Positions 1 to 11,140 of a stretch of 64,000 bases of DNA are shown here, one piece after another. The notes below the pieces were generated by a model. It did no database searches. It was given only the letters and a program-made list of their open reading frames with translations, and was not told the DNA's origin. Position 1 is the stretch's first letter; each line of letters opens with the position of its first letter. The stretch comes from Candidatus Bathyarchaeota archaeon (GTDB lineage: Archaea; Thermoproteota; Bathyarchaeia; Bathyarchaeales; Bathycorpusculaceae): NCBI GenBank assembly GCA_963720565.1, contig CAVRFW010000008.1:1-64000 (forward strand), read 5' to 3'. The position numbers and the translations under genes are program-made.

Positions 1-226
1 AGGAGATGAAATAAGTGAGCCCTAAAAGTGATGAATTGCCCGCATTGTGGGAAGCTTTTGCCGGGAGAATTCTGGCATGAGAAGAGTCAAGCCGAAGCTA
101 AGTAGTCATTAAGTGTCCCATCGGTGCGGAAGCAGTAGAAACTGGAAAGATGCTGGAAGACGTGCACGAAATCGGGGTCTATTCAACGATACTTTTGCCG
201 TAGACTGCGGGCGCAGGTTTTCATGA
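1..226 (+). pseudogene. Degenerate copy of the Zn-ribbon ORF at 1253-1462
   Basis: 1-223 aligns by eye with 1239-1453 (aggagatgaaata..., atgaa.tgcccgcattgtgg, tggcatga, ttaagtg, tattcaacg, actgcgg.cgcaggttttca) but has indels and an in-frame stop. Confidence 0.75.
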
Positions 227-324
227 ATCGTGTTGGGAGCTCCTTTAGACTCCTTCAGCGTCTTCTTTTTTTCTGTTGGGAAAGCATTAATAGTATGAAA
301 GTAAAATATTCTTACTGATGAATT

Positions 325-591
325 ATGACAGAAGAGCTTGAAGTAACCACAATGAGCGAAAAAGGGCAAGTTGTCATCCCTCAGTCGATACGAAAGGAAC
401 TTGGAATAAAGCCAAAAACCAAGTTTCTAGTTTACGGAAGAGGCGACACTGTCATAATGAAAAAGCTCGAGCTCCCTGACTTGAAGAAAGAATGGGAAGA
501 CATCTTCAAGCTGATGGACAAAAAAGAGCTCAAGATGTCTGACAACGAAATCCAGAAAGAAATAGCAGAGGCCAGAAAAGCAAACAGATGA
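325..591 (+). CDS. AbrB/MazE/SpoVT-family DNA-binding antitoxin
   Basis: MSEKGQVVIPQSIRKELGI is the AbrB swapped-hairpin signature; lies directly upstream of a PIN gene. Confidence 0.9.
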   Translation: MTEELEVTTMSEKGQVVIPQSIRKELGIKPKTKFLVYGRGDTVIMKKLELPDLKKEWEDIFKLMDKKELKMSDNEIQKEIAEARKANR

Positions 592-595
592 TCTG

Positions 596-1014
596 ATGCT
601 TCGAGTTGTCCTTGACACCAACGTTCTTGGTTAGTGCCATAATCTCTGATGGCAAGCCAAGAGAGCTCTTAAGGAAAGGAATCTCAAAAGAGTTCTGCAT
701 TGTAACCTCAGACTTGATTCTAAGAGAGCTTGGCATTGTCCTTCGCAGACCAAAATTCAAGACGGACGAGGATGAAATTCACAGAATTATTCTCGCTTTG
801 ATGCAATACAGCAGAAGTGGTTGAGGTAGTCTCGAAATTCAACCTGGTTAAAGAGGATCCAAAAGATGATATGGTTGTTGAGACGGCTTATGATGGAAAA
901 GCCGACTTTATTGTTTCTGGAGATAGCCATCTTTTGGCGCTGAATAGTTTTAGGGGAATTAAGATAGTTGGAGTCAAGCAAATGCTTTCCTGTCTTGAAG
1001 AAAAAACCAGGTAA
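596..1014 (+). pseudogene. PIN-domain (VapC-like) toxin with two +1 frameshifts
   Basis: ATG 596 gives MLRVVLDTNVL; the frame shifts near 629 to VSAIISDGKP...E and near 808 to ...DPKDDMVVETAYDGKADFIVSGDSHLL, restoring the PIN acidic motifs. Confidence 0.85.
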
Positions 1015-1024
1015 ATGAAACTCT

Positions 1025-1056
1025 ATTGACAGCTTCTTTATAAGCAGCCTGTCAAT
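1025..1056. promoter_or_regulatory. Palindrome ATTGACAG-N16-CTGTCAAT with a central TTTATAA
   Basis: Perfect 8-bp inverted arms around a TATA-like sequence, between the PIN gene and the next ORFs. Confidence 0.35.
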
Positions 1057-1252
1057 GCATTTCCAGCTTTCTTATAAGGGAAGTGATAGTGATCGAAAGA
1101 AAGATCTGGAATGGGAATCAAATCCCCGGTGCTTTTGCAAAGGTGGTGGATTCGGACGCCAGTGAAAGAGGGGATATTACCACTGACTCGTTTCTCCGCA
1201 GCTACTCTCCTTCTTTTTCTCTTTTAGAACGAGTTGGCAGGAGATGAAATAG

Positions 1253-1462
1253 GTGAACAAAAAGGTAATGAACTGCCCGCATTGTGGAAAGGTATTGCCT
1301 GGCGAGTTTTGGCATGAAGAAAGCCAGGGAGATAAGCCGATCGTTAAGTGCCCTCGATGTGGTAGCATCAGGAACCGAAAAGACGCAAAACGGTACACAC
1401 CATCTGGAGCTATTCAACGCTACTATTGTGTAAACTGCGGTCGCAGGTTTTCAAAACTTTGA
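1253..1462 (+). CDS. Small Zn-ribbon protein (three CxxC motifs; resembles InsA-like/integrase N-terminal Zn ribbons)
   Basis: CPHCG, CPRCGS...QRYYCVNCGRRFS. Confidence 0.7.
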   Translation: MNKKVMNCPHCGKVLPGEFWHEESQGDKPIVKCPRCGSIRNRKDAKRYTPSGAIQRYYCVNCGRRFSKL

Positions 1463-1629
1463 TCTGCTTTTACCTTCAATCTTTTCTTATTTTTATGTGG
1501 AGTCTCGCTCTCTGGTCTACACTGATGCGGTGACATCTTCAGTTTGGTTTATGATGCATAATCAGAGTTATTGTGTAAGAATATTAGCGTTAGTAGCGTC
1601 AGGCTGAAGCGCACTTTGCAGGATGGTTA

Positions 1630-1773
1630 ATGTGTCCTGTCTGTAAGAAGGAAACTCGTCACTACACCAAAGACACCCATGATAGTCCTGTTTCGAAGAT
1701 GCGCAGGATTTGGTGTGAGGATTGCCGTGTGGTTCAGATGCAGTTTAAACAAACAGACGGAAAATGGGAATAG
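1630..1773 (+). CDS. 47-aa Zn-finger microprotein
   Basis: Translated by hand: MCPVCKKETRHYTKDTHDSPVSKMRRIWCEDCRVVQMQFKQTDGKWE with two CxxC motifs; below the ORF-track cutoff. Confidence 0.5.
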   Translation: MCPVCKKETRHYTKDTHDSPVSKMRRIWCEDCRVVQMQFKQTDGKWE

Positions 1774-1844
1774 AGCACGCCTGATTCTGAACAGAGAAAC
1801 AACTCAAAACCTTGGAAAAAAATCAGACAAAGTTAAAGTAAAAG

Positions 1845-3242
1845 TTATCTAATAAAACCGTTTATCGCATTTGCCACTTCCCCAGGCTGATCAAAACAGT
1901 CAAAGTGACTCGCATTGGTAATCCATTTCAAGCTTAATTGTGGAGCAATTGTGTTTAATCCGTCAAAGGAGGATTTTGGCTGTGAGAAATCTTGATCCGC
2001 TTGCAACAGCAGAATCGGGAATGTCCAATTTTGGTTGATGAGACGATTGTTAGCATCGCGGTACTCTTGCTGATTCTGGGGCATAAAGTACAGTGGAACG
2101 TTCTGTGCTACACCCGGACGCGAAAACTCGTAAGTGACATACATTTTATCGACCTCACTGAACGGTTTGACTAATCGAGGAAGATAGACTGAATTAACGA
2201 ACCACTGTGCGTCTTGCATGAAAAGTGTTCCCATACGGGGACTCGTGAATAGGATAAATTGTGGATTATCGATTGTTGGAGAGAGATTCGCATTGATGGG
2301 CGTTCCTCCTGACATTCGAACAAATCCAAGGATACTGTCTGGATATTGCTCCACTAACACTTCCCCTACCAAGGTACCCCAATCATGGCCCACAACATAG
2401 AATTTCGTGATGTTCAAACTGTCCATCAGATCCACAGTCTCTTTGGCTATGTTTTTCAATTCATAATTATTGCCAGGGGTGATGGATTGACCGTATCCTT
2501 GCATGTCTACTGCTATTAGACGATAGCTCTGATTCATCAGAGGCAGTACGTATCGCCAGGTGTACCAGGACTCTGGTAGTCCGTGAAGGAAAAGAATTGC
2601 CGTTCCATTTGGATTTCCCGACTGCACGTAATGCCACTTTACTCCGTTCACAAATAGATTGAAATGATTGAACTGAGCATCAACTGCATCGTGCGCGGCT
2701 TGATTATTGGCAATGAAAGCCTCATTATTTGTTTTCGCTTGGGATGCACTGGCATTGAGGACGACACCGAATGCTCCATAAAAAGTTAGCAGAACAACAA
2801 GGTATAAGGCTAATGAAACCATCAAAGTCTTTTTGAATTTTATTGTGGTTGACCTAGAATTTTCGCTTCTCCGACTTAATCGATACGCGAAGAATATTCC
2901 GATTGCCATGTACACGACTAAAAGACCAAGAAAAACGAAGATGGGAGCCAAAATTGGGCGCAAAGCACGTATCTGTGATAGTGTGTAAATAAAATCGACA
3001 TCCAGTACTAGAAATATGCCGCCAAAGGCCAATCCCAACCATCCGACAAAGCGATTTGAGAATTTCGGAATTATGTTTGCTAATGCAACAAAAAGCCATA
3101 CCGTTGTCAAAGCCCACATCACCGCTTGGAGAGAAGGCAGAATTTCAACAAACAAACTAGTATAGATAGTAGCTGGAATTGCCAAACATAATGATCCAAA
3201 CAACCAGTATTGTCCAAATCCCATTCGAGAGAGCGTTTTCAT
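1845..3242 (-). CDS. Alpha/beta hydrolase (epoxide hydrolase-like) fused to an N-terminal multi-TM domain
   Basis: HGLPESW, DMQGYGQS, GHDWG nucleophile elbow, C-terminal ASHF; about 5 hydrophobic helices in the first ~165 aa. Confidence 0.85.
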   Translation of the reverse strand: MKTLSRMGFGQYWLFGSLCLAIPATIYTSLFVEILPSLQAVMWALTTVWLFVALANIIPKFSNRFVGWLGLAFGGIFLVLDVDFIYTLSQIRALRPILAPIFVFLGLLVVYMAIGIFFAYRLSRRSENSRSTTIKFKKTLMVSLALYLVVLLTFYGAFGVVLNASASQAKTNNEAFIANNQAAHDAVDAQFNHFNLFVNGVKWHYVQSGNPNGTAILFLHGLPESWYTWRYVLPLMNQSYRLIAVDMQGYGQSITPGNNYELKNIAKETVDLMDSLNITKFYVVGHDWGTLVGEVLVEQYPDSILGFVRMSGGTPINANLSPTIDNPQFILFTSPRMGTLFMQDAQWFVNSVYLPRLVKPFSEVDKMYVTYEFSRPGVAQNVPLYFMPQNQQEYRDANNRLINQNWTFPILLLQADQDFSQPKSSFDGLNTIAPQLSLKWITNASHFDCFDQPGEVANAINGFIR

Positions 3243-3790
3243 TTACATTCCTTCGGTTTCCTGTTTAAAATTAAAAGAAGTATGATATATTCGGGTTCGG
3301 GAACGGAAAAAATACGCGAGACGACTGCAAAATGATGCAGCGGTAACCGCAACAATACTGACCGTTATTACGTCGTAGAATAATTGTCCTGAAAAAAGCA
3401 ACGTTAACCCTATTGCACCGTAAAGCAGACTCCCATAATATTTGCCGATTGGATCGTAGATTTCTTTTGTGAGGGAAGCTGGTAATCATAAACTGCACAA
3501 ATGCAAAGAGTATTAGCGGCAATACCCAATAAGGATACAATTCTGCAGTCACAAAGATTCGGAACATGCCGATTATGAATATGAAATCGACTGTGGCATC
3601 AAAATATGCGCCAAACTTTGTACCCGACTTCATTTTTCGGGCTAGATAACCATCTAAGAAATCAGTACCTATTGCTAAAAGAAAAAGTGTATATGCGGCA
3701 AATGTGAAATCGAAGATAAAGGCGTATACTAGAAAAGGGAGAATAATTACCCGCACCAAACTTAATAATGAGGGTAAATACTCGAAACCT
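3243..3790 (-). CDS. CDP-alcohol phosphatidyltransferase family protein (frameshift near 3473; start uncertain)
   Basis: TDFLDGYLARK...GAYFDATVD signature; removing one base in the ggg run near 3473 gives a hydrophobic C-terminus (TKEIYDPIGKYYGSLLYGAIGLTLLF...) ending at 3243. Confidence 0.8.
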
Positions 3791-3805
3791 AAACTTGTGG
3801 CTGTT

Positions 3806-4405
3806 TTAGGTGATTTGTTGGGCTGCCTGTGTTGCAATTTCAGTTGCGCTTTTTCCTCCCTCGTTTGGAGCCATACTATAGAGAAGCAGGGATTCCACAA
3901 CGGTGCCATTATGCGCTTGTATTATGTTTTCCAGTGATTGCTTGCTTCCTTGCGCACTTCCGAGGCCTAAAGTCATAAGCACGGTTTGGATTTCGTTGAG
4001 GTTTCCAATTCTATCAAGCTGACGGACCGTTGGTTTGTCAGGGTCTGAGGCGTAGGTGTTGCTTGAAACTACCAGTAAACTGTATTTGGAGAGGTCTGTA
4101 GGTGCTTCTATGCTTGGTGTTGCAATTTCCACTCTCCAACCGCTTGAGACAAGGCCGTCTGCAAAGGCGTAGGTGACATCGTGTGAGAAGGAGCTTAGTC
4201 CAGGATGGTATAGTACCAGTGCGGTTTTGGTTCCTTGAGGATTTTTGACTACAAGGTCAGTTATGACGTCGTTGTTCATTCCAACGCTTGCATAGGCTAG
4301 AAGTGATGCTGCTGTGATTGTTAGCGCGAGAAGTGTGATTAGCAGGATTTTTTTCCATCTTTTTTGAGGCCAGAGTTTCTTAAAGTGTTGCATGGCAAAT
4401 ATCAT
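3806..4405 (-). CDS. Membrane-anchored flavodoxin-like protein
   Basis: N-terminal TM helix; ALVLYHPG...AFADGL...GWRVE...YSLLVVSSNTY flavodoxin-fold pattern. Confidence 0.6.
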   Translation of the reverse strand: MIFAMQHFKKLWPQKRWKKILLITLLALTITAASLLAYASVGMNNDVITDLVVKNPQGTKTALVLYHPGLSSFSHDVTYAFADGLVSSGWRVEIATPSIEAPTDLSKYSLLVVSSNTYASDPDKPTVRQLDRIGNLNEIQTVLMTLGLGSAQGSKQSLENIIQAHNGTVVESLLLYSMAPNEGGKSATEIATQAAQQIT

Positions 4406-4489
4406 GATTAATCAATTATATATATCTTTTTTATATATTATAAAAGCATATATAAGCCAATCGAATGTTACATTTAACAGATGTAAGCA

Positions 4490-5038
4490 ATGAAGGAAAA
4501 CACTACTGAATATGTCATCTTAGGAATCCTCCGAAATAAATCCAGAACAGGATACGACATCAACAAAGTAGTGAAAACACGCTTAGGCCCTTTTTGGGAC
4601 ATAAATTACAGCCAAATTTACCCAACATTACGAGAACTAGAAAAAGGCGGTGCAATAACAAAAAGAGTTGAAATCAATGAACGCGGACAAAACCGAAAAG
4701 TCTATTCAATAACTAACGAAGGCAAAAATAAACTAAAGGAGTGGCTACTAAAACCTGCCAAACCTGAAAAACACAAAATTGAATTAATGCTAAAAATTGG
4801 TTTTGGCGAACAAGTATCCAATACTGAGCTAATAAAGCAGGTTCAGGCGTTTAGGGAAAGACACGTGGCGCAACTTGAAAATGTCTACAGAATTGAGAAC
4901 GAACTAAAAGCTCAATTAGATCAAAATGAAGCAAACTACTTTATGTTACTTTCAGTAGAGTTAGGCGCAAAATTCCACCTTTCCGCTGTTGATTGGGCGG
5001 ACACAACAATAACAAAATTAAGGAGCCGGGATAAATGA
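4490..5038 (+). CDS. PadR-family transcriptional regulator
   Basis: ILGIL...TGYDI...FW..NYSQIYPTLRELE...RKVYSITNEGKNKLKEWL; divergent from the hydrolase operon. Confidence 0.92.
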   Translation: MKENTTEYVILGILRNKSRTGYDINKVVKTRLGPFWDINYSQIYPTLRELEKGGAITKRVEINERGQNRKVYSITNEGKNKLKEWLLKPAKPEKHKIELMLKIGFGEQVSNTELIKQVQAFRERHVAQLENVYRIENELKAQLDQNEANYFMLLSVELGAKFHLSAVDWADTTITKLRSRDK

Positions 5039-5460
5039 GCAGTACCCAACCTCCAAGCTTTAAGGGAAGGTACTTTGGCTTAGCCGTATTGGTTGGCGCT
5101 CAGTTAATTGTTGGCTTGATACATGTTGTTTTTGGGGTTTGGCTTCTTGTTGCCTCTAATGGCGTTTCATCTTTTATTTTCTCATTGGGGGATGTCTATT
5201 ATTTTTACACTTTTCTATATGGTTTGTTGACTTTGCTTTTTGCCGTTGGTGTGTGGTTTAAGAAGAACTGGGGTTGGTATGGAACTTTGGCAGTTAGCAT
5301 CTTTGTAATCGTTGCCGATTCATTAAAGATACTAGGTTTGCCTAGTGTGCCAGGTATCCCCATGTTTGCGGGTTTTGGCGAAATCCCATATAGTATCATA
5401 ATTGTCGTTTACTTGTTACAGAGCCACGTTAGAACAGATTACAAAAACAAACAAGGTTAA
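5035..5460 (+). CDS. Hypothetical 4-TM membrane protein
   Basis: Four hydrophobic segments; ATGA overlap with padR. Confidence 0.7.
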   Translation: MSSTQPPSFKGRYFGLAVLVGAQLIVGLIHVVFGVWLLVASNGVSSFIFSLGDVYYFYTFLYGLLTLLFAVGVWFKKNWGWYGTLAVSIFVIVADSLKILGLPSVPGIPMFAGFGEIPYSIIIVVYLLQSHVRTDYKNKQG

Positions 5461-5510
5461 AAAATAGTCAGACATTTTCACATCAAAAGTCGCTTTGGAA
5501 GGAAATTAGT

Positions 5511-5963
5511 ATGAACAAGGAAAAAGAGGAAAGAATTAGAGTTTTTCCAAAACAATTGGATAATAGTTTTCGAGGTAACAGAATTGCAGTTATAGTATTC
5601 GCATTAATTACGGTTTTCACTTTGGCGAGAAGTTGCATTCACATATTTGCCCCTGATGGTGGAGCGAGTAGTATAGCAGGAATAAACACGTCTGTTGAGG
5701 GGGGTTCTAACGTTATCTCGATGTTTGCGTTCTGGGGTTTGGCACAGCTTCTGATGGGGCTTGTTTATCTTGCAGTTTTCTTTCGCTATAAGAGTCTAAT
5801 CCCTTTCATGTACATGCTCATCATAATTGAGTACTCTGGGCGAGTTTTAATTGGTATGGTAAAACCTTTGATAGTTTCTCATACTCCGCCTGGAGCAATA
5901 GGTGACTATATTCTGATTCCCTTAGCAATAATGATGCTGATTTTATGTTTCAAGAGATCATGA
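5511..5963 (+). CDS. Hypothetical membrane protein
   Basis: About 4 TM segments, HIFAPDGGA motif. Confidence 0.7.
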   Translation: MNKEKEERIRVFPKQLDNSFRGNRIAVIVFALITVFTLARSCIHIFAPDGGASSIAGINTSVEGGSNVISMFAFWGLAQLLMGLVYLAVFFRYKSLIPFMYMLIIIEYSGRVLIGMVKPLIVSHTPPGAIGDYILIPLAIMMLILCFKRS

Positions 5964-6293
5964 AAGGAATGAACTCGGACTGTTTTCTTATCAACGAAGA
6001 TTTTATTCGAACTAAGTTGAAGTCTTTTGTGTTTGCGATATAATCGTAAAGCTTTTAACCGTTCAAATTAAAGGATCAAACATCGCAGTTTTCAACCAAT
6101 AGGTGACTATATTCTGATTCCCTTAGCAATAATGATGCTAATGTTATGTTTCAAGAGATCATGAAAGGAATAAACTCGGATTTTCTTATCAACGAAGATT
6201 TTATTCGAACTAAGTTGAAGTCTTTTGTGTATGCGATATAATCGTAAAGCTTTTAACCGTTCAAATTAAAGGATCAAACACACAGTTTTCAAC
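5896..6293. repeat. Imperfect tandem duplication, ~200-bp unit (5896-6096 and 6097-6293)
   Basis: Both units run caataggtgactatattctgattccc...cagttttcaac, with a few substitutions and indels. Confidence 0.95.
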
Positions 6294-6299
6294 TCCCTT

Positions 6300-6606
6300 G
6301 TACTTGCCACCAGCGCGCGCTTTGGGTCGATACTGGCTTTTTCCATAGGTGCTCTGCTATATTATATCATATTTTATCGAACGAAAACTAGTTCCTCGAT
6401 GGATATCGGTTTGGGGTCTTGCTGCTGCCATATTGACCATATTATCATTCGTTTTAGCCACGGTAGGCCTCATCGCTCCTGGTAGTACGGAAGAAACCGT
6501 TTTGGCTCTTCCAATGCTCCCGCAAGAAATGGTTCTTGCGGTATGGCTGATAGCTAAAGGATTCAATCCATCCGTAATTGCTTCCAAGTCTCCTCAAGTG
6601 GAATAG
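6300..6606 (+). pseudogene. 5'-truncated DUF4386-like membrane protein fragment
   Basis: ...IGALLYYIIFYRT/KLVPRWISVWG...QEMVLAVWLIAKGFN; no N-terminus, +1 shift in the A-run near 6385. Confidence 0.65.
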
Positions 6607-6718
6607 TTGAATAACCATGGAAACCCCAGCGTACCAGGAGTCATCTTGTTTTTATGATGAGGGGCGCACGCGCTCGGCGACAAGTGTTAAATAAAGGAAA
6701 AAGACATAAAGGCAAGTC

Positions 6719-7132
6719 ATGGGCGCCAATACTTCAAAGCCAAATTATGCTAGCTTAATTACCAAAATTCTGATAGTTCTGGTCATACTCAACATTGCTG
6801 GGGACGTTTTAGCTGCGGCGTTTTTTCTGTGGGACCCTTCCTTAGGTGAGTTGTCAGTATACGGCGGTTTGATTGCAAGTTTTGCGGGAAAAAATGGTGC
6901 CGTTATGATAACAAGCGCCATTCTTTTAGGCTACGCGGTGGTTTACGCTGTTTGTGTCTTTGGGTTGTTAAGTAAATTAAAGTGGGCACCGCCTCTGGTT
7001 ATTGCCGTTTCGGTAGTGAATCGAGCACTTGCTTTGGGGGTTATTTTTGAGCCAAACGTTGCTTGGCTAATCTGGTCAGCATGGAAACTCGTCATAATAG
7101 CTTTAGCTGGGTATCTTTGGCGCAAAACGTAA
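6719..7132 (+). CDS. Hypothetical 4-TM membrane protein
   Basis: Hydrophobic 137-aa ORF with ATG start. Confidence 0.65.
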   Translation: MGANTSKPNYASLITKILIVLVILNIAGDVLAAAFFLWDPSLGELSVYGGLIASFAGKNGAVMITSAILLGYAVVYAVCVFGLLSKLKWAPPLVIAVSVVNRALALGVIFEPNVAWLIWSAWKLVIIALAGYLWRKT

Positions 7133-7210
7133 TTTAACTTTTGGAGGCGCTCCCTGTTTGGGGAGAGTATCTAAACCGCCTCTTAGTTGACCATTTCGCC
7201 AATAATTCAA

Positions 7211-7614
7211 CTAAGCGGGCAAGCTATGCTGCAAAGTTATGACGACGTTTCCTTTTTTGTGTCCGGCTTCCACGTAGCGATGGGCCTCGGCAATCTGCTC
7301 CAAAGGATACGTTCTATCGATGACTGCTTTTAATTTGCCAGCTTCAATTAGACCGCTAAGTGTTGACAAATCGTTTGGCTCCATGCCCCCGTTTCCCCAA
7401 GTGGAGAGAAAAACGCCGTTTTCTGTCAGCGATCCCTTTGCTTTTGAACGCGAAATTTTGCCTACTGCATCAAAAACCAAGTCATACCTCTGACCATTTT
7501 TGGCGAAGTCTTCTTTGGTGTAATCAATCACAACATCCGTCCCTAAAGATTTGACCAACTCCAAATTAGCGGCGCTGCATACGCCGGTAACTTGTGCCCC
7601 GAAATATTTAGCAA
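7211..7614 (-). pseudogene. C-terminal fragment of an NAD(P)-dependent MDR/quinone-reductase-type alcohol dehydrogenase
   Basis: LAKYFGAQVTGVCSAANLELVKSLGTDVVIDY...VIDRTYPLEQIAEAHRYVEAGHKKGNVVI; the reading frame begins at the left TIR. Confidence 0.85.
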
Positions 7615-8097
7615 GCGCGCGGGCAGATTAAATAATTGGTGTAAAATGGTTATAATTCTTATTTTCGAATTTGGGGGCAGATTTGAGGCGCGCAGCTCTT
7701 CTTTGTTTCTTTGCAGTAACCGCCCTTCTCGAACCTGCAGAGGTGCCTCAGACGAGCGAACCGCAGAGTCGCCAGCGTCCCATGCGGGTTTTGAAGCGCA
7801 GTGGTCACTTGCTTTGCTGCTGTGGATGGAACATGATAGGCGAATTTAGGTCTTCCCAGACCGTTTGAAGCCATTTTCTCTTTGACGACAAGACCCCGAG
7901 CTGCCAGCCGAGTCAAGATGTTGCTGCAAAGTGTTATGGCTGAAACCCACTTCGCCCGGAAGCGCTTGTGAAGCTTCTGGGTTTGCCGTCTTTTTGGGCA
8001 GCCAAAACGCGTTCATCAGAGAAGCCCATTACGGGCTCAAATAAGCAAAAACGGACTTATAACCATTTTTAACCATTTATTTAATTCCCCCGCGCGC
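7615..8097. mobile_element. 483-bp element with 41-bp imperfect terminal inverted repeats
   Basis: 7615-7655 gcgcgcgggcagattaaataattggtgtaaaatggttataa vs reverse complement of 8057-8097 gcgcgcgggggaattaaataaatggttaaaaatggttataa (35/41 identical). Confidence 0.8.
7659..8029 (-). pseudogene. Winged-HTH protein with a C-terminal Cys4 motif (~122 aa; two +1 frameshifts)
   Basis: Reconstructed MGFSDERVLAAQKDGKPRSFT/ALPGEVGFSHNTLQQHL/RLAARGLVVKEK...GRPKFAY...LCRFEKGGYCKETKKSCAPQICPQIRK. Confidence 0.75.
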
Positions 8098-8102
8098 GCT
8101 AA

Positions 8103-8306
8103 ACCAATCTTTATGTTCTATCCCAGTTTCAGGGCCACAAAAACATCCAAAACACCCTCCTCTACACGCAGCTAATAGTCTTCAAGAGCGACGAATTCCA
8201 CTCAGCCACTGCAAAAACAGTAGAAGACGCTCAGAAGCTTGTTGAGGCAGGATTTGAGTACGTGTGTGATTTCGGCGAAGTCAAGCTATTCAGGAGACGG
8301 AAATGA
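8103..8306 (+). pseudogene. C-terminal remnant of a tyrosine recombinase/integrase
   Basis: GHKNIQNTLLYTQL (box II His and catalytic Tyr) then ...AKTVEDAQKLVEAGFEYVCDFGEVKLFRRRK*; ends 32 bp from the tRNA 3' end. Confidence 0.85.
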
Positions 8307-8338: not shown

Positions 8339-8417
8339 TGGTGGGGCCGCTGGGATTTGAACCCAGGATCGCATGCGCCCCAGGCATGTATCCTAATCCA
8401 TGCTAGACGACGGCCCC
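8339..8417 (-). tRNA. tRNA-Pro(GGG), CCA encoded
   Basis: GGGGCCG acceptor, anticodon arm CATGC-CTGGGGC-GCATG, T arm CTGGG-TTCAAAT-CCCAG, ends CGGCCCCACCA. Confidence 0.95.
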
Positions 8418-9495: not shown

Positions 9496-11140
9496 TTAGC
9501 CCATTATCGCCTTCAAGTCTGCTTCAGCGGTCGTTATAGGCATGATATTGAACTTTTCAACCAGTACCTTCAGGATATTCGGCGTTATGAACGCTGGAAG
9601 ACTCGGTCCGAGCCGGATGTTCCTTATTCCCAAGTGAAGCAGCGAAAGCAAGACAGCAACAGCTTTCTGTTCGTACCAGGAAATCACAAGCGATAGAGGT
9701 AAATCATTAACCTGAACCTTGAAAGCGTCAGCCAACGCCAGAGCGACTTTCACAGCAGAATAGGCATCGTTACATTGGCCCATGTCTAGAAGCCTCGGAA
9801 TCTCGTCAATGGTACCCAAATCCTTGTCAAAGAAACGGAACTTTCCACAGGCCAGCGTCAGGATAATAGTGTCTTTCGGCGCTTTCTCAACGAATTCTGT
9901 GTAGTAGCTTCTGCCAGGCTTTGCACCATCGCAGCCGCCCACCAACAGGAAACGCTTTATGTGCCCTTTCTTTACAGCGTCTATGACTTTACCAGCTACA
10001 CTTAACACGGCATTTCTTCCGAACCCAACGGTTACATACTTACCCTCGACGTCCGCTGGGAACCCAGGCAACTCCAACGCCCTATTAATTACGGCAGAGA
10101 AGTCTTTGCCTTTAACATGGGGCGTTCCAGGCCAGCCAACCGGTCCCGAAGTGAAAATATTGCCCTTGTAATTCTCCATCGGCCTCTGTATGCAATTTGT
10201 TGTCATCAGTATAGCTCCTGGAAACGCTGCGAATTCTCTCTGCTGATTCTGCCATGCTGTCCCGTAGTGACCATAGAAATGAGGATATGCCTTCAGTTTT
10301 GGGTAACCGTGGGACGGAAGCATCTCTCCGTGAGTGTAGACGTAAATGCCCTTTCCTTGGCTTTGCTTCAAAACTTCTTCCAAATCGATCAGGTCATGTC
10401 CTGAAACCAAGATTGCCTTGCCCTTCTTGGCGCCAAGAGGCACTTTCGTGGGAACTGGGTGACCGTACGTTTCGGTGTTTCCAGCGTCTAAAAGCTCCAT
10501 TGCGCGGATGTTTATTTCACCGCATTTCAACACCAAACCCACGAAATCATCCACGCCAAGAGACTCGTCCAAAGCAGCAGCCAATCCGTGATGAACAAAA
10601 TCAAAGATTTTTGCGTCCTTCTTCCCAAGAAGGTAAGCGTGGTAAGTGTAGGCAGCCACACCCTTCAAACCGTAGGTCAGAAGCCAGTGGAGCGAGTGAA
10701 GATCAGGATCCTTTGCAGGATCAGATTTTATTCCCACAAGCTTTGCCCTGTCCTACTAAATCCTCTCTGGTTGTCCCCAGAACCAAGGCAACCGGTCCGC
10801 TGTTGAAACCAACAGTTGAGCCCGCTGCTTTAGTCTTCATTAGCAACATTTCCCGTAGTTCAGCGGCTTTTCTAATGTACACGACTAAGTCGTCAGCGTC
10901 GAAATTCACATTCGTCAATGTCGCAAAAAGGGCTTCGCAAGTGAAAATGGCAACTTGCTCTTCTTTCACACCGACCTTTTCGGCCTCTATGGCTAACTGC
11001 GAAACTCCCCTTAGCATGTAGACTAACAAGTCTTGAAGCGCAGCCACCTCAGGAGTCTTTCCACAGACTCCAACAATTGTGCACCCTTGACCTTTAGCCG
11101 TCTGCTCACATTGATAACAAAACATTTGTTCTTGACTCAT
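9496..11140 (-). CDS. hcp: Hybrid cluster protein (hydroxylamine reductase), split by a +1 frameshift near 10740
   Basis: MFCYQCEQTA...GVCGK, SGHDL, YTHGEM, MTTNC, GGCDG, TLACGK, GQCNDAYS, SWYEQKA; two overlapping ORFs. Confidence 0.93.

Follow-up and report, generated by a model that had tools for sequence, protein, structure and literature searches.

A probably undescribed family of transposase-less, gene-bearing mini-elements in Bathyarchaeia with apparently exchangeable insertion sequence ends

The element at the locus

In the 64,000-nucleotide stretch of the Candidatus Bathyarchaeota archaeon genome G000 that was analysed (the window), a short gene lies between inverted repeats, with no transposase, and the genes on both sides are cut. 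What is this element, and how could it move? The repeats (7615–7655 and 8057–8097, 41 bp each) match at 35 of 41 positions, the top score among 25,463,901 arm pairs in the window with a spacing of 300–700 bp, and the 12 highest-scoring arm pairs are all shifts of this one. Their GCGCGC tips and a tandem AAATGGT sub-repeat were found as the original prediction had described them. It had given the element 483 bp (7615–8097); the repeats do lie there, but the GC on the side of the truncated MDR (zinc-binding dehydrogenase) gene is target DNA. This GC (7615–7616) falls within an MDR codon and is common to an MDR paralog and to four contigs of sequencing run X2, which diverge from the window after 7616 and, like the paralog, continue into an intact MDR gene; the element proper is therefore 7617–8095 on the minus strand (479 bp, as against 477 bp in intact relatives).

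The left outer end (7617–7636, plus strand, 20 bp) is a type A terminal repeat of an insertion sequence (IS) with DUF772 and DDE_Tnp_1 domains, and it matches the two termini of such an IS elsewhere in G000 (G000:C9:335349-336621, locus L077) at 17/20 and 18/20 positions. It is followed by a left inner repeat (7637–7655, plus strand) of two tandem 10-bp TGGT units, which is specific to the cassette and is the putative site of the encoded protein. The right inner repeat (8057–8075, minus strand) also has two tandem TGGT units, the second of which contains a TATA-like box 27 bp upstream of the ATG, and the right outer end (8076–8095, minus strand, 20 bp, type A) is identical to the ends of the same IS at 15/20 and 16/20 positions.

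The single gene (7659–8029, minus strand) has its stop 3 bp inside the left repeat and specifies a protein, here called wHTH-Cys4, with winged helix-turn-helix motifs and the spacing C-x7-C-x6-C-x4-C. The position, stop, wHTH and cysteine spacing had been read correctly, but the length of about 122 aa belongs to intact relatives: the window copy is spread over three frames by two single-base insertions (+1 frameshifts near 7967 and 7911), called by alignment to an intact 477-bp homolog (L001, 122 aa). All three near-full copies in G000, the window copy and two others, are frameshifted. Genes of housekeeping type that look split by frameshifts occur elsewhere in the genome as well (window 9496–11140 and 3271–3909, G000:C5:348045-349002; presumably Hcp-like, CDP-alcohol transferase-like and ProRS-like genes), so it is possible that the assembly is indel-prone. 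Among contigs of relatives from sequencing runs none crossed the locus, and the listed indels miss both frameshift positions; the frameshifts may be errors or may mark a pseudogene.

Both flanking genes end at the repeats, as predicted. The MDR remnant (7211–7616, minus strand) corresponds to residues 179–312 of the 312-aa paralog, its N-terminal 178 codons being gone at the left tip, and the C-terminal remnant of a tyrosine integrase (8098–8306, plus strand) corresponds to a 422-aa homolog at L143 from about residue 353 onwards. The flanks thus derive from two different genes, each cut at GC, and adjacent deletion from the element tips therefore fits the arrangement. Downstream lies a tRNA-Pro(GGG) gene (8339–8417, minus strand), probably the attachment site of a decayed integrated element that hosts the mini-element. 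L143 shows a matching integrase-tRNA arrangement; a search of the contig for an att duplicate found none. In a contig of run X1 a type B outer end is joined to the interior of the window element at 7635. The region beside the integrase remnant (window 1–7600) looks accessory, with a hydrolase, a PadR-like regulator and membrane proteins; the gene at 325–591 is presumably AbrB-like, and that at 606–1014 a split PIN-like gene.

The family and its gene

A query with the C-terminal open reading frame matched 76 loci in species-representative genomes, almost all of them assigned to Bathyarchaeia. Similar proteins are multicopy in this class, as the original prediction had suggested. Both ends were present at 42 of the 76 loci and in three G000 copies, 470–480 bp apart and with unrelated flanks; across the family, two-ended copies measure 424–571 bp. 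Single-copy homologs at a conserved locus were thus not what was found. Clustering at 90% left 807 relatives of the intact protein and clustering at 50% left 411, among which are generic HTH proteins. The gene is patchy and multicopy, occurring in 7 of 41 related genomes and, at E≤1e-10 and counted by eye, in 32 of 401 genomes of the class; matches had been returned in 339 of the 401, and those weaker than E 1e-10, mostly to generic wHTH proteins, were rejected. Outside the class, four among 401 genomes of the phylum carry the gene, mostly broken. Two weak matches in viral contigs were inspected, and neither belongs to the family.

The gene is under purifying selection as judged from intact genes only, with a median dN/dS of 0.21 in one set (109 usable of 465 pairs, 31 intact genes) and 0.22 in another (48 usable of 231 pairs; maximum 1.05, in one pair). 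The intact-ORF filter, which also discards a few open frames with an altered EKG motif, was passed by 31 of 47 two-ended GTDB copies; the C-R-F-E-K-G motif in the C-terminal part is invariant. In one element of 297 bp that lacks the gene, both inner repeats are still present and enclose an unrelated interior.

Solo ends and derivatives that are truncated or lack the gene were seen at L138, G000:C13:64720-64876, G000:C4:26644-26750, G000:C9:330456-330585, G000:C10:23312-23439 and G000:C2:57279, some stopping at bare GC runs without a terminal repeat and resembling deletion footprints. Two mini-elements lie in or just after tRNA genes (L034:2792, L042:2824). At L160:1309-1848 a long wHTH-Cys4 homolog without terminal repeats is located two genes downstream of an integrase-like ORF and is possibly a source or domesticated form of the gene. 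Literature searches that covered openly accessible papers showed neither such a family nor a single cargo that uses the ends of more than one IS family. The family is real and probably undescribed, non-autonomous and gene-bearing.

The wHTH-Cys4 protein was analysed using profile and structure searches. Residues 1–81 are predicted to fold as a winged helix (pLDDT 83.8), and a fold search with this prediction gave Z scores of 10–12 (best Z=12.0, rmsd 2.2, 77 residues aligned). Only HTH-type families were matched, all below cut-off (HTH_20, 26.2 against 27; Lrs14, 37.8 against 90; Sta1, 32.5 against 80), and no DDE, HUH, Tyr or Ser catalytic domain was detected in the gene, in agreement with the motifs read from the window. 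Searches of PDB, Pfam and the Atlas gave no match to the Cys4 tail, which the fold search barely probes. A resemblance of the tail to a CCCH zinc finger was considered and rejected, since its spacing, C-x7-C-x6-C-x4-C, differs from the required C-x7/8-C-x5-C-x3-H, and zf-CCCH_PAN3 matched 1 of 20 members (E=1.9). Among 889 candidates screened for fusion to a catalytic domain, a weak test, the one longer match is a frameshift read-through.

The recognition helix and the inner units vary together. At 80 loci, HN helices occur with TGG units (46 loci), R-x helices with AGA units (28) and unclassified helices with AGA units (3), with three ties and no cross combination, a link that amounts to one or two evolutionary changes and therefore not to independent replication. 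R-N-T helices occur with TGG units, and the inner units of both ends change together with the helix. The protein is thus likely to bind the inner units. At the upstream end, 42 of the 68 loci that could be scored have a TATA-like box 27 bp ahead of the start; the upstream unit presumably overlaps a TATA/BRE promoter, a sigma-70 promoter scan having been set aside as uninformative for archaea. Because the TATA-like box lies at this spacing within the upstream unit, autoregulation through a unit that overlaps the protein's own promoter is suggested. Downstream units are kept in every outer class, and from this, together with the gene-less element that retains both repeats, we infer binding of the protein at both ends, which would favour movement of the cassette. 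The prediction had offered, as one of two alternatives, that the element carries its own protein for binding the terminal repeats; this is probable in the narrower form given here, in which the inner repeats and the covariation with the helix point to the protein's sites.

Outer ends and partner insertion sequences

A mini-element end of the window's kind consists of GCGC plus 16 bp, which occurs in five subtypes (A–E), followed by tandem 10–11-bp units. Longer elements that share these outer ends and carry a catalytic gene do exist: full ISs were found for all subtypes, in 13 distinct copies of 1.06–1.28 kb with DUF772 and DDE domains, GCGC tips and GC flanks (L077, L067, L108, L111, L113, L115, L122, L124, L129, L133, L134, L032 and L038), the type A partner measuring 1.25–1.28 kb. 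The non-autonomous alternative of the original prediction is borne out by this match of the outer ends to a DDE IS. The L067 transposase contains PF05598 and PF01609 domains above cut-off. Transposases of this group (about 320 aa) fall below every NCBIfam cut-off, the nearest families being IS1182 (162.8, 168.2 and 67.9 bits against a cut-off of 270) and IS5 (IS5_4, 97–105 bits against 140), and the GCGC-tipped ISs are an unclassified IS group in Bathyarchaeia. The IS at G000:C9:335349-336621, the only partner found in the 89% complete genome G000, has an in-frame stop; a Pfam DDE_Tnp_1 search of that genome gave no match, and tblastn does recover the broken IS. In two of the seven genomes with the wHTH-Cys4 gene the query with a transposase of the GCGC type was unmatched.

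The interior of the mini-element is unrelated to these ISs, the best match being 13 bp, and the inner units are present in none of 15 partner ISs. The mini-element is therefore not a simple deletion derivative of an IS. No two-ended unit was seen to have both an intact family transposase and the wHTH-Cys4 gene; the longer units at L045 and L053 are nested rearrangements. At L053:2990-3010 a similar-looking sequence within the wHTH gene is fused to a type D-like end.

At the junctions, GC stands at both tips in 61 of 79 GCGC-tipped mini-elements and in 8 of 13 ISs, and direct repeats of greater length do not fit. The sequence next to the tips is GC, with weak preference for (T/G)(A/C)GC, and not the GCGC site that had been proposed as the target. 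A target GC fits at the MDR junction and at L042; L010, L019, L067 and L298 mismatch their homologs there, and the junctions at L034, L045 and L056 show GCGC only. The GC may be a 2-bp duplication, or the tips may lie one base further out. Flank searches with 45 mini-elements, 64 elements and 92 elements revealed no two-sided empty allele, and four genomes of the same genus gave no empty site.

Three further observations concern these ends. At L164, L166 and L198 (also L052 and L072) the GCGC tip is swapped for one common foreign sequence ending CATACCGTC, as if another element were to target the GCGC tips of mini-elements precisely. Longer GCGC-tipped units at L007:3860-5297 and L058:116-1786 have repeats that run on as GTTGAGACCGTGTGAAAA; they may represent a sixth subtype or, alternatively, ends into both of which an IS has inserted. 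Abutting ends of different family members share GCGC or GCGCGC (L032:3302, L045:1490, L056:1436, L010:147, L013:5090), which suggests insertion of family members at each other's tips.

Using divergent proteins as queries, 260 metagenome loci were obtained, and among the best 80, which were analysed, nine other end classes besides the GCGC types were found directly outside similar inner repeats. With further classes at L153 and L386, more than 10 classes of outer end are associated with the same gene and inner units. Duplications, counted at distinct loci with duplicates collapsed, were of 8 bp in the GGCTCTGTT class (4/6 loci), 6 bp in the CTGAAG class (3/6), 8, 8 and 6 bp in the GAGGGG class (3/4), 5 and 6 bp in the GGGGG class (2/4), 3 bp in the GAACTC class (2/4, short enough to arise by chance), 4 bp in the CAGATACTG class (1/1) and TA in the TAGTT class (1/1). 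The length of the duplication tracks the outer end class.

Partner ISs were matched for five classes, belonging to three unclassified IS1182/IS5-like groups, IS5 and an IS6-like group. Genome G014 has mini-elements together with their partner, an IS specifying a 293-aa transposase, and for one end class the partner is a 378-aa IS. In G093 an 806-bp IS5 (NCBIfam IS5, 225.1 bits against a cut-off of 110), with 42 end matches, accompanies a mini-element with the same ends, of the GAACTC class. The partner of the GGCTCTGTT class is a 700-bp IS6-like element with PF13610 above cut-off, its sole NCBIfam match being IS6 (80.1 against 125 bits), and the L168 class is tied to IS6-like elements through a similar GGCTCTGTT end. 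The exact end patterns of the L153 and L168 classes matched only mini-elements in 401 genomes, and the CTGAAG end was not seen as an end at five IS1634 loci. Classes for which no partner was found may be of the IS1634, IS630, IS982, IS903 and ISH3 types. A burst of the 806-bp IS5 and the 700-bp IS6-like element was observed in G093 (L349–L382), where none of four two-ended IS6-like copies had a duplication; the figure for mini-elements with similar ends is 4 of 6.

On a tree of the protein the outer label is clustered and requires 18 changes, the minimum being 14, and on a second tree 10 changes against a minimum of 6. Intermediates are seen: hybrid ends occur in 3 of 79 mini-elements, the X1 contig combines a type B end with the window interior, and old and new ends are nested at L254, L281 and L302. 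As judged from these sequences, the outer ends are interchangeable among IS families, the gene and the inner repeats being constant.

Possible movement, rival explanations and known systems

The mobility of the mini-element is very probably IS-driven. The outer 16–27 bp of each end would reproduce the terminal repeat of an IS, whose transposase could therefore cut and insert the cassette in trans, a reaction to which the observed identity of the ends and the class-specific duplications point. Inside each outer end, two or three tandem 10–11-bp units of the cassette would be bound by the wHTH-Cys4 protein, with autoregulation as a consequence at the upstream set, which overlaps the promoter. 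Occupying both ends, the protein would raise the odds of mobilisation, most likely by pairing the ends of a DNA of less than 500 bp beside the transposase sites. The weakest step is that this pairing would be independent of the identity of the transposase; direct contact of the protein with such different transposases is less likely. A change of partner may come about when the cassette lands in or beside another IS end and loses the intervening DNA, one end at a time; hybrid and nested ends are seen, and the order of the switching events is conjectured from them. Taken whole, the model of a transposase-less cassette with modular ends and its own end-binding helper protein is rather more probable than its negation. 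Its strongest form, a transposase-agnostic IS parasite whose own protein binds and pairs the ends, so that any DDE transposase with a grafted repeat moves the cassette, is put forward tentatively, and transposase-agnostic pairing would account for the repeated switching between unrelated IS families. In that case the protein would act as a general end-bridging helper that is supplied by the passenger and not by the transposon.

Much of what the regulator-like gene shows could also be read as an ordinary passenger of a mobile insertion cassette, retained because it benefits the host or controls genes nearby; the inner repeat would then be no more than its operator, duplicated at the far end through homogenisation of the terminal repeats. 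The unit that overlaps a TATA-like box at a fixed spacing, the nearest models being the Lrs14 and Sta1 regulators (far below cut-off) and the homolog without terminal repeats at L160 all accord with this. A gene kept for its host would hardly be so patchy and multicopy with unrelated flanks (7/41 genomes, and 32/401 at E≤1e-10 by eye), and an operator copied by homogenisation sits badly with repeats found at both ends in every outer class, changing with the helix at both ends and retained by the gene-less derivative; we consider this explanation unlikely. The same binding could instead serve as a damper or shield, the protein limiting cutting or protecting the ends from other ISs or chromatin, so that copies survive longer and do not jump more. 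Family ends are often struck by other elements (L032, L045, L056, L164, L166), and end-binding repressors such as IS1 InsA and IS3 OrfA are known, but a pure inhibitor would scarcely have been kept through many swaps of partner with its sites always abutting that of the transposase, 16–27 bp from the tip, and this is the less probable of these two explanations.

That the protein itself cuts, the IS-like ends being incidental, is very improbable: duplication length tracks the outer end class and not the protein, the outer ends match real ISs, and the one longer form among 889 candidates is a read-through, against which stand an invariant C-R-F-E-K-G motif without a known match and the broken state of the partner in G000. 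Least credible of all is an internal-deletion derivative of an IS, with a chance open frame or the leftover accessory gene of a two-gene IS. The match of the outer 20 bp is what such a derivative would show, but the interior matches the IS over 13 bp at best, the gene is under purifying selection and no two-ended unit combines it with an intact family transposase.

A non-autonomous element usually depends on a single parent IS, whose ends define it. In the cassette model, what persists is the cargo gene together with its putative binding sites, and the IS ends are exchangeable and derive from several families. Transposases of prokaryotes are often inefficient in trans, and looping a short DNA is difficult. 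If the protein does help transposition, the mobilisation of tiny elements becomes directly testable, and the protein is a possible portable enhancer for archaeal mini-transposon tools. The family is also found at apparent deletion junctions, the window locus included.

Among known systems, En/Spm TnpA, the second proteins of PIF/Harbinger elements, IS1 InsA and IS3 OrfA are non-catalytic proteins that bind repeats near the ends and affect transposition. In those systems the autonomous element itself supplies the protein, for use with its own transposase, whereas the putative binder described here is carried by a non-autonomous element, and the partner ISs lack its sites. The protein resembles MarR, PadR, ArsR and Lrs14-type regulators in its predicted winged-helix fold and differs from them in that all family scores are below cut-off and the Cys4 tail is unmatched. 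Transporter ISs (tIS) carry their own transposase along with passengers, and there is no transposase inside the mini-element ends. The IS1182/IS5-like ISs, with DUF772 and DDE_Tnp_1 domains and terminal repeats of about 20 bp, are the partner and not the mini-element, and the GCGC group departs from IS1182 and IS5 proper in its transposases of about 320 aa with scores below cut-off, its GCGC tips and its GC flanks.

Archaeal MITEs, as outlined in PMC3852290, are under about 500 bp, resemble the autonomous partner over about 20 terminal bases and have duplications of the partner's type; they are generally without ORFs and are thought to be products of internal deletion. The mini-element shares with MITEs so described the size, the partner-like terminal repeats and the partner-type duplications, but it is filled by a selected gene that is unrelated to the IS. 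The closer likeness is to the mobile insertion cassette, characterised in PMC6199540 and PMC3129680 as IS inverted repeats enclosing a coding sequence and no transposase, moved in trans by the cognate transposase. The mini-element likewise has two IS-type repeats, no transposase and one coding sequence, and it presumably works in the same way, movement in trans being suggested by the class-specific duplication lengths. MIC231 of the Bacillus cereus group has IS231 ends and measures about 0.7–3 kb (PMC6199540). In that account MIC231 combines one IS end with different passengers, whereas the mini-element combines one gene with the ends of many IS groups; it is of 424–571 bp, its ends are those of archaeal IS1182/IS5-like, IS5 and IS6-like elements and not of IS231, and it adds at both ends repeats of its own, which vary with the protein.
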